Shown: piece after piece, positions 1-4,082 of the stretch
Layout: the number at the start of each line of letters is the position of its first letter
Position numbering within the stretch: the first letter of the stretch is position 1
IMG/VR virus record: IMGVR_UViG_2740892273_000009
Length of the DNA: 4,082 bases
Source: a virus
Taxonomy: Duplodnaviria > Heunggongvirae > Uroviricota > Caudoviricetes
Strand: one strand, 5' to 3'
Notes under the pieces: generated by a model
The model's database searches: none
Told to the model about the DNA's origin: nothing
The model's input: only the letters and a program-made list of their open reading frames with translations
Made by a program: the position numbers and the translations under genes

Positions 1-99
1 CTGGCACGGCTGGGACGGAAGTCGCTGTCGTTCTCAAAATCGGTGGAGCTGCATGACAAAGTCATCGGGCATTATCTGAACATAAAACACTATCAATAA
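1..99 (+). CDS. insB: IS1 InsB (transposase C-terminal part), 5'-partial: last 32 codons plus TAA stop at 97-99
   Basis: Direct translation of 1-96 gives [32 protein letters not shown], recognised as the InsB C-terminus. The ORF is open to the window edge. Confidence 0.8.
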
Positions 100-114
100 G
101 TTGGAGTCATTACC
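1..114 (+). mobile_element. IS1 insertion sequence, 3'-terminal 114 bp (right end, terminal inverted repeat at about 92-114); the rest of the element lies left of the window
   Basis: Bases 1-114 match my recollection of the last 114 bp of IS1, ending ...CAATAAGTTGGAGTCATTACC. Frame 1 translates to [36 protein letters not shown], the InsB C-terminus. The block is the exact reverse complement of 3969-4082 and identity stops abruptly at 114/115. Confidence 0.85.
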
Positions 115-543
115 TGCGCCCCCCTGTGGAATGTAGTAATAACGTTCCATAACGCGGGCACGCCATATTTCCAGATTTTCAATATCTTCACCGTCTGTAA
201 TGGTGTCAGCGTACCCTGTGGACGGCAGACCACTGACGGGTGTTCCCAGTTGCATGGCAATACCATCATCCGTATTCCCCGCCGATCCCGGTTCGTCTGC
301 CACAACAGGCACCCGGAGAAGACCATCGGCTGCGGTCACCGTCGCCGTCGTGGTAAAGGTCACCTGATTATCACGCTGGATCTGCGTTCCCGCTGGCAAT
401 ACCGGCGTCCCCTCTACGCCATCCCAGCGCACAAATCCCCGGGCTGCCACCGCTTCTTTTCGCGGGCAGCGTTTGATTCTGGCGTGCCGGTACAGCCAGT
501 CTTCATCACACACGTCCGGTAACCACGGGTCGCCCGTTAACAT
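34..543 (-). pseudogene. Baseplate wedge protein gene at the Mu gp46/gp47 position (motifs reminiscent of the baseplate J family), interrupted by IS1. Native codons are 115-543 (about 143 codons); 34-114 is read-through into IS1 antisense sequence
   Basis: ATG at 541-543 lies 15 nt after the spike gene stop, same strand, in operon position. The frame stays open to the IS1 junction at 114/115, then runs 26 codons into IS1 ([25 protein letters not shown]) before TGA at 34-36. Native part contains PVLPAGT...VPVVADEPGSAGN...ITDGEDIENLEIWRARV...GG, which resembles J-like baseplate proteins from memory. Family assignment is tentative. Confidence 0.55.
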
Positions 544-558
544 TAATCATCATGATTT

Positions 559-1092
559 TCAGCCCATCGGTTGATCCGGCGTGTCAGTGATCCCGCCACC
601 ATCACCATTTTCGGTATGTTTGTGGGCATTGTAGGCCTGCCGCATTTGCTGCATGCTGAGTCCGCCACTGTCGCAATTGTCAGTAATATCGGCGGTGGAT
701 TCGACTGGCATTTCAAAGCGCGCTTTAGGCGCGTTTTTAAAAATTATGGCCTTCCCGGCCCCGTCCACCACAATACCGGAACGGGTCAGGACAACGGACT
801 GTCCCAGATCGTCATAAAGCGCCACTTCCCCACGTTTCAGTCCTTTCAGCCGGTAACGTCTGTCAGCCACGACCACAACCACACCATGAGAACGATCGCC
901 CGCCGGAAATAAAGCAACGCCCTCAGCACCGTTCTGTGCGGCAGATGTAAAACCATAAGGTTCAAGGTGCTCAACGTGTTGTTTCTGATCTCCGGCTATC
1001 ATTTTCAACCCTACAGACTGACACTTTCTGGCGGAATCCACCGCCGTGATGACAGCCCGGGAAATCAGATTACGAAGAGAAAACCCGTTCAT
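559..1092 (-). CDS. Baseplate central spike / puncturing device protein (Mu gp45 Q-like, P2 gpV family), 177 aa
   Basis: Strong RBS GAGGAGG 7 nt upstream of the ATG. Position directly after the hub gene. C-terminal AHKHTENGDGGGITDTP resembles the His-rich apex of gpV-type spikes (P2 gpV has HTHKHPGDSGG from memory). Size is typical of gpV-like proteins. Confidence 0.75.
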   Translation of the reverse strand: MNGFSLRNLISRAVITAVDSARKCQSVGLKMIAGDQKQHVEHLEPYGFTSAAQNGAEGVALFPAGDRSHGVVVVVADRRYRLKGLKRGEVALYDDLGQSVVLTRSGIVVDGAGKAIIFKNAPKARFEMPVESTADITDNCDSGGLSMQQMRQAYNAHKHTENGDGGGITDTPDQPMG

Positions 1093-2152
1093 CAGAAATC
1101 CTCCTCAACATTTTTTTCTTCCTGGCGGTAACAGGCTCGGGGAGATAAGCATCTGCCGGGCCAACCCGTAATTCAGTCGTCGTGCCCCGGTCGTCCTGGT
1201 TATAGGTAACTTCTGCGATCACCAGTTCATCATTATCAAAATTATTCAGCGGGTCGAAAACGATGACAGATAACCCCGGACGCCATAACGCGCCACTGCC
1301 CTGCCGCCAGCCCTGAACCGTATATGTTGTCTCACGGGTAAGCGCAGCCCGTTGGCGCGCTTCAAATTCACAACGGGCCTTACAGGTTGCTGTCGTTGCT
1401 GTGCCTGACTGCTGAATCAACAAAGGGCGATAACGGGTCACGCCACTGTCCTGAATGGTCTGACGTATTGCGGCAATGGTGGCCTCACCAAAATCATCGT
1501 CGTTGCCCGGGCGCTGCCCACTGACCTGATATTCAGAAAACCGCTCTCTGATGCTTCTTTCCGTGTCACAGGAAAGAATATTCTCTCCCAGCACCAGCAC
1601 CAGCGCCGTCGCCGCTTTACCTGTTCCGGGTTTTCCCAGAACCAGTCGCCCGCATTCATCGTCATAAGCCAGCGTCTGAACCTGCCCCAGTAACCGGTTA
1701 AGACAATCGGCAACGGTTTCGCCGTGTTCCGGCTGGGCATCAATCACCGCTGTCTGCGGCACGCCAGCATCAACAACGGTGATGCCAAATGGCGCAGCCA
1801 GTTCACTGACTATTCTGAGCAGGTTTTTTCCGCTCTGCTGGAGTGGCAAAGCAGAGCAGTCAACCAGATCGGCTGTTTTGCTTCGCCCGACAATTCCCAT
1901 GCTGACGCTGCTGGCGTCATAACGAAGCGGTAGTGCCTCCACATATCCGGTGAGCACAGGCTCATCCCCGATAAGCACTTCAACCAGCTCACCATTTTTT
2001 ATCCGGGGTTGATAATCCCGGCTTCCGGGCCAGCGGGTGGTAATGGCAACATTAAAATCCCGGGCAATACGGTTAATGCCCGCACTGATACGGACGGATG
2101 TCCAGCCGCCCCATTCGCGACCGGAAACCCGAAGTAAAACGGTATCATTCAT
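1070..2152 (-). CDS. Baseplate hub / tail protein (Mu gp44 P-like, P2 gpD-like late tail protein), 360 aa
   Basis: ATGA start-stop overlap with the upstream N-like gene and a 23-nt overlap with the downstream spike gene. Size and position between DNA-circularisation protein and spike match the Mu N-P-Q order. Coding composition is uniform. Confidence 0.75.
   Translation of the reverse strand: MNDTVLLRVSGREWGGWTSVRISAGINRIARDFNVAITTRWPGSRDYQPRIKNGELVEVLIGDEPVLTGYVEALPLRYDASSVSMGIVGRSKTADLVDCSALPLQQSGKNLLRIVSELAAPFGITVVDAGVPQTAVIDAQPEHGETVADCLNRLLGQVQTLAYDDECGRLVLGKPGTGKAATALVLVLGENILSCDTERSIRERFSEYQVSGQRPGNDDDFGEATIAAIRQTIQDSGVTRYRPLLIQQSGTATTATCKARCEFEARQRAALTRETTYTVQGWRQGSGALWRPGLSVIVFDPLNNFDNDELVIAEVTYNQDDRGTTTELRVGPADAYLPEPVTARKKKMLRRISDERVFSS
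1100..1106 (-). promoter_or_regulatory. Shine-Dalgarno GAGGAGG for the spike gene, located inside the 3' end of the hub gene
   Basis: Minus-strand GAGGAGG followed by a 7-nt spacer and the ATG at 1090-1092. Confidence 0.6.
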
Positions 2153-3545: not shown

Positions 3546-3549
3546 CTCC
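3546..3549 (-). promoter_or_regulatory. Shine-Dalgarno GGAG for the N-like gene
   Basis: Minus-strand ...TTTTTTTATAGTGGAGACAGT-ATG; GGAG with a 5-nt spacer. Confidence 0.5.
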
Positions 3550-3553
3550 ACTA

Positions 3554-3580
3554 TAAAAAAACCGCCAATTTCTGGCGGCT
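3554..3580 (-). terminator. Rho-independent terminator for the AT-rich ORF (minus-strand orientation)
   Basis: GC-rich 6-bp stem CCGCCA (3562-3567) / TGGCGG (3573-3578) with a 5-nt loop. On the minus strand it is followed by a run of 7 T (plus 3554-3560 AAAAAAA). It begins 8 nt after the TAA stop at 3587-3589. The plus-strand side has only a broken T-tract. Confidence 0.55.
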
Positions 3581-3586
3581 TATATA

Positions 3587-3982
3587 TTAATCATCATTAA
3601 TATCTTTCATATTCAATTTGCAATTTTCGTAGGTCACTCCCGACTCGCCATTAACATTAACTCCAGCTCTGATATTCCCGTTTTCTTTTACATCTACAAA
3701 AAACTGGCCTCTTGGCATCTTGAACGCAAATGTAAAACCAACAGTATCTGAATCAAAATCATCATCTTTATATATTGGGATCAAAAATGTCATCGTCGCT
3801 GGTGATGCATTGTTTGCAAAATCAAATACACCTATACTTTTGCCGAATTCATAAGAAGCTTTTCTCAATATAATCGCACCGCTGGCAGAAGGGGATGGGC
3901 ACGATATCCTCAGTTGTCTGAATCCATCTGTATCCAAGTCAACGTCATTATCTGCAGATGTTTTAACGGGTAATGACTCCAA
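3587..3982 (-). CDS. Hypothetical protein, AT-rich orphan ORF, probably 5'-truncated by IS1. Native sequence is 3587-3968; the TTG start at 3980-3982 proposed by the ORF track lies inside IS1
   Basis: Open frame with TAA stop followed by its own terminator. Base composition is roughly 30-35% GC by eye, against about 50-58% for the tail genes. The frame is open up to the IS1 junction at 3968/3969, with IS1-internal stops just upstream in frame. No in-frame ATG with a convincing RBS inside the unique part. No family recognised. Confidence 0.4.
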   Translation of the reverse strand: MESLPVKTSADNDVDLDTDGFRQLRISCPSPSASGAIILRKASYEFGKSIGVFDFANNASPATMTFLIPIYKDDDFDSDTVGFTFAFKMPRGQFFVDVKENGNIRAGVNVNGESGVTYENCKLNMKDINDD

Positions 3983-4082
3983 CTTATTGATAGTGTTTTA
4001 TGTTCAGATAATGCCCGATGACTTTGTCATGCAGCTCCACCGATTTTGAGAACGACAGCGACTTCCGTCCCAGCCGTGCCAG
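3969..4082 (-). mobile_element. IS1 insertion sequence, 3'-terminal 114 bp in inverted orientation (terminal inverted repeat at about 3969-3991); the rest of the element lies right of the window
   Basis: Exact reverse complement of 1-114. Identity with the left copy ends at 3968/3969. Confidence 0.85.
3984..4082 (-). CDS. insB: IS1 InsB C-terminal part, 5'-partial (minus strand), stop at 3984-3986
   Basis: Reverse complement translates to the same ...[36 protein letters not shown] as the left copy. Confidence 0.8.

Follow-up and report, generated by a model that had tools for sequence, protein, structure and literature searches.

Baseplate genes and insertion sequence ends in the window

The window analysed here, a stretch of 4,082 nt, is the entire draft contig CWVW01000232.1 of assembly GCA_001261435.1, and both of its ends are therefore contig ends lying inside a repeat. 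Judged from its sequence, the interior belongs to a degraded prophage beside ssrA-smpB and comprises 3.85 kb of its phiP27/Mu-like tail-baseplate module, with the genes in the order gp43 (DNA_circ_N), gp44 (GpP-like), gp45 and gp47 (Baseplate_J) and all Pfam matches above the gathering scores (Table 1). The exact gp45-like protein occurs in thousands of assemblies, and the gp44-like gene contains a hexanucleotide VNTR at 1587-1607, with 1-5 repeat copies across loci.

Table 1. Features of the window, with positions, strands and the evidence for each assignment.
Feature	Position	Strand	Evidence or remark
IS1 3' end (IS1 positions 655-768), first copy	1..114	+	Identity to IS1A and to the IS1 of closed genome L004
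Inner target-site duplication copy, gp47 IS1	115..123		tgcgccccc on +, GGGGGCGCA on -
Baseplate J / Mu gp47-like internal fragment	115..523	-	PF04865 Baseplate_J, E=5.7e-25; phrog_6 and phrog_2103, baseplate; alignment with L001 and L004
558-bp deletion junction	523..524		Takes out the bulk of gp46 and ~62 codons from the start of gp47
gp46, first 10 codons (MMINVNGRPV)	524..553	-	Translation; 'phage GP46 family protein' at the homologous start in L001
Mu gp45-like baseplate spike / assembly protein V, intact, 177 aa	559..1092	-	PF06890, E=2.1e-26
Mu gp44 / GpP-like baseplate hub protein, 360 aa	1070..2152	-	PF21683, PF22255, PF21929, PF22630
Mu gp43-like DNA circularisation protein, intact, 463 aa	2149..3540	-	PF07157, E=3e-36
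Terminator-like hairpin and T-run	3559..3581	-	10-pair stem, then TTTTATAGTG; directly after the AT-rich ORF (promoter/terminator scan)
AT-rich (36-40% GC) prophage ORF, 3' three quarters	3587..3968	-	phrog_5586, E=9.7e-89, unknown function
Inner target-site duplication copy, second IS1	3960..3968		gttttaacg on +, CGTTAAAAC on -
IS1 3' end (IS1 positions 655-768), second copy, inverted relative to the first	3969..4082	-	Perfect reverse complement of 1-114

The baseplate gene gp47 persists as a fragment cut on its 3' side by IS1 and on its 5' side by a 558-bp deletion, and the mechanically called ORF at 34-543 continues for 27 codons into IS1. Comparison of the window interior with the closed genome L004 gave 0 substitutions and a single 558-bp gap (L004 13018-13575), with no microhomology found at the deletion junction. 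As a result of this deletion, gp46, which is present in all closed relatives, is missing from the window, and its remnant reads into a stop five codons beyond the junction. The loss of gp46 and of the 5' end of gp47 is a deletion separate from the IS1 insertions. At the opposite end of the module, IS1 took away the first 35 codons of the AT-rich ORF, a lipoprotein-like signal among them; an intact version of 160 aa lies at 10030-10512 in enteroinvasive E. coli (EIEC) FDAARGOS_944 (L001). Searches with this ORF returned no Pfam family and no PADLOC match.

A repeat search of the window recovered the two terminal arms as a 100% complementary inverted repeat of 114 nt, as the first-pass annotation had described, and perfect arms of this length cannot have arisen by chance within 4 kb. 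The attribution of these arms to the 3' end of IS1, comprising the InsB C-terminus and the right terminal repeat, was borne out as well: the first arm matches IS1A of E. coli K-12 MG1655 (NC_000913.3 19796-20563) with 0 mismatches, and it also shows 0 mismatches to the IS1 of L004. The last 32 insB codons and the stop are contained in 1-99 (stop at 97-99; translation ending in HYQ), and the end of the right terminal inverted repeat (IRR), ...GGAGTCATTACC, occupies 103-114. Both copies point inward with their insB-proximal (IRR) ends, and the two inner flanks listed in Table 1 had likewise been read correctly.

Full IS1 copies and target-site duplications in closed relatives

The first-pass annotation had further held that the true IS1 copies must extend outside the window, and the search for full copies that it proposed was carried out in closed relatives. 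The closed-genome set comprised 15 chromosomes, about 14 further places grouped as similar having been left out, and the chromosome CP022672, additional to the 14 described next, is that of Shigella sonnei 866 (PMC6128377). The data on target-site duplications (TSDs) and collinearity describe closed relatives with identical inner junctions and interior, not GCA_001261435.1 itself. In 14 of the 15 closed chromosomes (~4.8 Mb), the segment lies between two full inverted IS1 copies, with inner junctions identical to those of the window, and the expected extension of IS1 was thereby found. The copies measure 768 bp, apart from one of 769 bp. Both IS1 termini were located at the expected 768-bp spacing at 14 loci for the left copy and at 15 for the right; the terminal inverted repeats are imperfect (GGTGATGCTGCCAACTTA... 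and GGTAATGACTCCAACTTA...), and the flanking genes of the closed relatives were identified as insA/insB by PF03811, PF12759 and PF03400. The full IS1 copy of L004 is 768 bp long with 3 mismatches to IS1A, and the window keeps 114 bp of each copy. Within single genomes, the two copies differ by 0-1 mismatches in L004, L007, L008, L010 and L012, while the sixth genome compared, L003, carries the 769-bp right copy, which falls outside the scoring of an ungapped comparison.

Each IS1 carries its own perfect 9-bp TSD. The arrangement is CGTTAAAAC-IS1-CGTTAAAAC in the AT-rich ORF, with the duplication on both sides in 14 closed chromosomes, and GGGGGCGCA-IS1-GGGGGCGCA in gp47, with the duplication on both sides in 15. 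In the IS1-free prophage of EIEC FDAARGOS_944, which is uninterrupted, CGTTAAAAC and GGGGGCGCA occur once each. Taken together, a separate TSD for each IS1 and a single occurrence of each 9-mer in the IS1-free prophage indicate two simple insertions. The first-pass annotation had named the TSDs as the means of telling simple insertions from composite transposition and inversion, and the pattern found corresponds to neither of the latter two. Furthermore, gene order is collinear throughout (14/14): tape-measure gene, IS1, AT-rich ORF, gp43 to the first part of gp47, IS1, and the remainder of gp47 followed by gp48 and the fibre genes. The prophage occupies the same locus, bamD...ssrA-smpB, in all 15 closed chromosomes.

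Origin of the bracketed segment

Very probably, two ordinary IS1 copies inserted separately into a decaying prophage tail segment, and the window is the contig between them. One IS1 would have entered the AT-rich accessory ORF that lies between the genes for the tape measure and for DNA circularisation, and the other the baseplate gene gp47, each producing its own 9-bp target duplication; the opposite orientation, with insB ends inward, would then be happenstance. The role of both insertions would probably have been confined to gene inactivation in an already dead prophage. From the cut genes at the inner junctions it had been concluded that at least one rearrangement must have occurred, which does not follow, since a simple insertion into a gene also cuts that gene. 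Under two simple insertions, the IS1 next to 3968 should have the outer flank ...TTAGTAACGTTAAAAC, on the tape-measure side of the prophage, and the IS1 next to 115 should have GGGGGCGCAGACCCTG..., the remainder of gp47; the corresponding contig ends should read ...TTATTAGTAACGTTAAAAC followed by GGTGATGCTGCC, and GGCAGCATCACC followed by GGGGGCGCAGACCCTGATT.

The form in which the segment appears probably owes much to assembly. The earlier caveat that the window might end at a collapsed repeat was justified, the window being a complete draft contig. It probably comes whole from a short-read assembly of a Shigella sonnei-type genome; this assignment relies on sequence identity to the closed genomes, among them a published S. 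sonnei. The assembler would have been unable to cross either IS1 and would have emitted the stretch between the copies as a contig of its own, so that the apparent bracketing inverted repeat would be a real inverted IS1 pair viewed through an assembly break. The k-mers that span a repeat junction contain at most k-1 repeat bases, and Velvet requires an odd k. Given this behaviour of de Bruijn graphs, the 114-bp arms probably represent assembler overhang at the collapsed repeat, corresponding to k-1 for k=115. In L022 and L023, two further draft contigs that cover the segment, the ends fall on these junctions or a few bases from them, with 0 IS1 bases, which indicates that the retained IS1 length depends on the assembler. 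Contigs of 2-5 kb bearing the exact gp43 protein occur in 3132 collection blocks.

An alternative is that the segment, of 3.9-4.4 kb, is flipped by homologous recombination between the two inverted 768-bp IS1 copies, leaving the isolate or its population flipped or mixed. RecA could act on identical inverted repeats of 768 bp separated by about 4.4 kb, and orientation is invisible in a short-read contig, so the window by itself is compatible with a flip. An inversion would, however, exchange the inner TSD copies and leave the swapped signature CGTTAAAAC-IS1-TGCGCCCCC; instead, every one of the 14 closed chromosomes that carry both copies has kept the ancestral, collinear orientation with matched TSDs, and the flipped orientation was found in none of them. 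Any flip would also be without functional consequence, the genes involved being already pseudogenised. The invertible architecture proposed in the first-pass annotation thus stands as far as the long, near-identical inverted repeats are concerned (five of six genomes compared), but neither inner flank is found again at the opposite outer end. With every one of the 14 closed chromosomes in the ancestral orientation, inversion was rejected, and as an account of the window it is considered very unlikely. Much the same small probability attaches to the broader proposition that the segment in this particular isolate is flipped or mixed in orientation, or mobilisable as a de novo composite transposon.

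Even less probable, to the point of being negligible, is that the segment is an IS1 composite transposon of the Tn1681/Tn9 type, in which the IS1 copies and their cargo have moved, or can move, as a unit through the outer IRL ends. The structure in the closed relatives is that of such a transposon, the segment having a complete IS1 copy on each side and the two copies being inverted and essentially identical, and this part of the earlier proposal holds. No sign was seen that the pair has ever acted as a transposon or as a recombination substrate. The outer flanks are unlike (CGTTAAAAC vs GGGGGCGCA), each being the inner flank of its own IS1, so that a shared outer TSD is absent. The cargo also runs straight into prophage genes on both sides: the two parts of gp47 lie across one IS1 and those of the AT-rich ORF across the other, in agreement with the uninterrupted EIEC prophage, and the segment is confined to its single bamD...ssrA-smpB locus in all closed genomes. 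In addition, the cargo segment had no match among 72,556 plasmids, and no segment with IS1 attached was found in the E. coli complete genomes. Composite transposition as the history of the segment was ruled out by the TSD pattern, the collinearity with the flanking prophage and the absence from plasmids. Finally, a misassembly in which IS1 ends were wrongly joined, in a genome without IS1 at one or both junctions, has almost no probability. In its favour, the window is a draft contig that ends on both sides in a high-copy repeat; against it, closed assemblies produced independently by many projects have IS1 at both junctions base for base, and further drafts are broken at or near these positions.

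Altogether, the segment is very probably a product of routine IS-driven decay, neither a transposon nor a DNA switch, and the finding is ordinary and already known in kind. Its biological weight is small, as one more case of IS1 expansion eroding a Shigella prophage remnant. A caution of wider use is that a contig with perfect inverted IS ends and the same IS stop position most often reflects an assembler break at a collapsed repeat; it is the target-site duplications of a closed relative that tell whether such a segment is a composite transposon.

Comparison with known systems

Tn1681 is reportedly an inverted-IS1 composite transposon, described by So, Heffron and McCarthy in 1979. The segment resembles Tn1681 and Tn9 in having a few kilobases of DNA enclosed by a pair of IS1 copies, whose inverted orientation it shares with Tn1681. 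It differs from them in the separate TSD of each IS1, with no shared outer one, in the nativeness of the bracketed DNA to the surrounding prophage, and in the restriction of the IS1-bracketed unit, which was never found at another locus or on a plasmid among the genomes and 72,556 plasmids searched.

The bracketed genes themselves are closest to phiP27, an Stx2e phage, whose positions 33585-37570 share 96.5% nucleotide identity with window 115-3544, and the Pfam families match gp43, gp44, gp45 and gp47 of the Mu tail-baseplate module. In contrast to both phages, the module here is a dead remnant, with gp47 split by IS1 and gp46 deleted. A further difference is the AT-rich accessory ORF, which phiP27 lacks and which here separates the tape-measure gene from gp43.

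The closest parallel is provided by simple IS1 insertions in Shigella, whose IS1 expansion was described by Hawkey et al. (2020; PMC7373316). Shigella reference chromosomes carry 229-348 IS each, counting all kinds, and IS1 accounts for the largest share, 46-73% of insertions (PMC7373316). The window shares with such insertions the 768-bp IS1 with insA/insB, terminal repeats of ~23 bp and a 9-bp target duplication, as well as the disruption of prophage-remnant genes and a high copy number that fragments short-read assemblies. Nothing of substance sets it apart from them; what is particular to it is the two sites, the AT-rich ORF and gp47.

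IS1 termini and target-site duplications

A perfect 114-nt inverted repeat was found at the window extremities, with one arm at each (1-114 and 3969-4082). Positions 1-114 align to 655-768 of IS1A (E. coli K-12 MG1655, NC_000913.3 19796-20563) with 0 mismatches, and their translation gives the InsB C-terminus, whose stop codon occupies 97-99; the right terminal repeat comes next and finishes with GGAGTCATTACC at 114. Both window ends are therefore 3' ends of IS1 with insB-proximal termini facing inward, in agreement with the first-pass annotation.

Exact-protein look-ups of gp43 and gp45 yielded 15 distinct closed or near-closed chromosomes (4.80-5.03 Mb), including that of Shigella sonnei 866 (CP022672; PMC6128377); chromosome counts refer to these 15, and about 14 further "similar" places grouped with them lie outside the counts. 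In 14 of the 15, the segment lies between two complete, inverted IS1 copies, their right terminal repeats (IRR) inward, exactly at the window junctions. These copies measure 768 bp, or 769 bp in one case. The longer copy is the one in gp47 of CP104423.1 (13991-14759 of locus L003, equivalent to 8537-9305 of L014 on the same chromosome); the one additional base, at about position 313, probably reflects a sequencing indel or a homopolymer error in long reads rather than a real variant. Against L004, a closed-chromosome locus with both copies, the window interior shows 0 substitutions and a single 558-bp gap.

The target duplications were read in closed relatives whose junctions are identical to the window's, not in the source assembly GCA_001261435.1 itself. 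There, CGTTAAAAC stands on both sides of the IS1 in the AT-rich ORF and GGGGGCGCA on both sides of the IS1 in gp47. The IS1-free prophage of EIEC FDAARGOS_944 carries a single, uninterrupted copy of each 9-mer (...AGTAACGTTAAAACATCTGC... and ...CACAGGGGGGCGCAGACCCTG...). Read across the two IS1 copies, the genes keep the order of this intact prophage. Beyond one copy are the tape-measure gene and the 5' portion of the AT-rich ORF; beyond the other is the 3' portion of gp47, followed by gp48, the fibre genes, ssrA and smpB. One duplication pair per IS1, as seen in the 14 closed chromosomes, corresponds to two simple insertions on the criterion set out in the first-pass annotation. A composite transposon, one of two architectures originally proposed, is not supported, since the closed relatives show no shared outer duplication; nor is an invertible segment, since in these chromosomes no swapped inner flanks occur and the order is collinear. 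The inner junctions do cut genes, as had been noted, but the rearrangement drawn from this is unnecessary because IS1 insertions alone suffice. Further evidence speaks against a mobile unit. The interior had no match among 72,556 plasmids. At least 80% of the window is present in 47 of 5,426 complete E. coli genomes, and the top matches among these all stop short of the IS1 ends.

Contig boundaries

By exact-protein look-up, the ORF that passes from gp47 to IS1 matched a single record, contig CWVW01000232.1 (4082 bp, coordinates 1-4082) of draft assembly GCA_001261435.1; thus, the window is an entire contig with both ends inside a repeat. IS1 stops at the same position at both ends, 114 bases in. 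When a de Bruijn graph assembler collapses a repeat, k-1 repeat bases are kept at the contig end, and in Velvet k must be odd. We infer that the 114 bases represent k-1, so that k=115, odd as for Velvet. This collapsed-repeat explanation is supported by draft contigs of the segment from other assemblies (L022, 4399 bp; L023, 4141 bp), which end at or a few bases from the window junctions with 0 IS1 bases retained. Furthermore, contigs of 2-5 kb with the exact gp43 protein occur in 3132 blocks of the collection, so assemblies repeatedly yield this stretch as a contig of its own.

Interior genes and the 558-bp deletion

Genes in the window interior, all on the minus strand
Feature	Position	Strand	Domain
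gp47 fragment	115-523	-	Baseplate_J
gp45	559-1092	-	PF06890
gp44/GpP-like baseplate hub	1070-2152	-	four GpP domains
Mu gp43-like DNA circularisation protein	2149-3540	-	PF07157
AT-rich ORF	3587-3968	-	

A clean 558-bp deletion lies at junction 523|524 (L004 13018-13575 missing), with no microhomology there. It removes gp46 past its first 10 codons and the first ~62 codons of gp47, so that gp46 is reduced to a stub of 10 codons and a spurious ORF of 169 aa extends 27 codons into IS1. Only two contigs on record carry this ORF, the window's being recorded for two samples, and the deletion occurs in 0 of 15 closed chromosomes and 0 of 2 other draft contigs inspected; it is specific to the window's isolate.

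Within gp44, a hexanucleotide tandem repeat, (CTGGTG)n, at 1587-1607 on the minus strand is translated into an (LV)n run of the hub protein. Its copy number ranges from 1 to 5 full units across the loci examined (gp44, 358-366 aa), and it is a VNTR in a dead prophage gene that could serve as a typing marker.

The AT-rich ORF (36-40% GC), truncated by IS1 in the window, lies between the tape-measure gene and gp43. It has its own terminator-like hairpin downstream (3559-3581) and encodes 160 aa when intact (10030-10512 of the EIEC locus, L001); the product of that copy opens with a lipoprotein-like signal (VIKPFLMTVAILTSC). The ORF falls in phrog_5586 (function unknown), with no match in Pfam or PADLOC. 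It looks like a prophage moron, the product possibly being a surface or exclusion lipoprotein.

Lineage variation and relation to known prophages

Two IS1 copies are expected to be inverted about half the time. Reference chromosomes of Shigella hold 229-348 IS elements, 46-73% of them IS1 (PMC7373316); against this background, it is not remarkable for two IS1 to lie within a few kb of each other in a dispensable prophage. In S. sonnei 866, IS5 stands in place of the left IS1 and of most of the AT-rich ORF, which makes a second IS event here, specific to that lineage. The IS5-type element (8790-9990 of its locus, L009; ends GGAAGGTGCGAA...TTCGCACCTTCC) stops just upstream of the gp43 start. Such variation among lineages is ordinary IS-driven decay.

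The top E. coli match is EIEC FDAARGOS_944 (99.6% identity), where the prophage is uninterrupted and reads tape measure, hypothetical 160-aa ORF, gp43, gp44, gp45, gp46, gp47, gp48, fibre genes, ipaH. This ipaH effector gene, just past the tail-fibre end, is frameshifted (L001 1-1137); in the S. sonnei loci, ssrA (tmRNA, L004 19480-19842) and smpB directly follow the fibre genes. The Stx2e phage phiP27 shares 96.5% identity with window 115-3544; it lacks the AT-rich ORF. What the window shows is a decaying phiP27/Mu-like prophage that IS1 entered twice, independently, viewed across an assembly break; such insertions are already known in kind.
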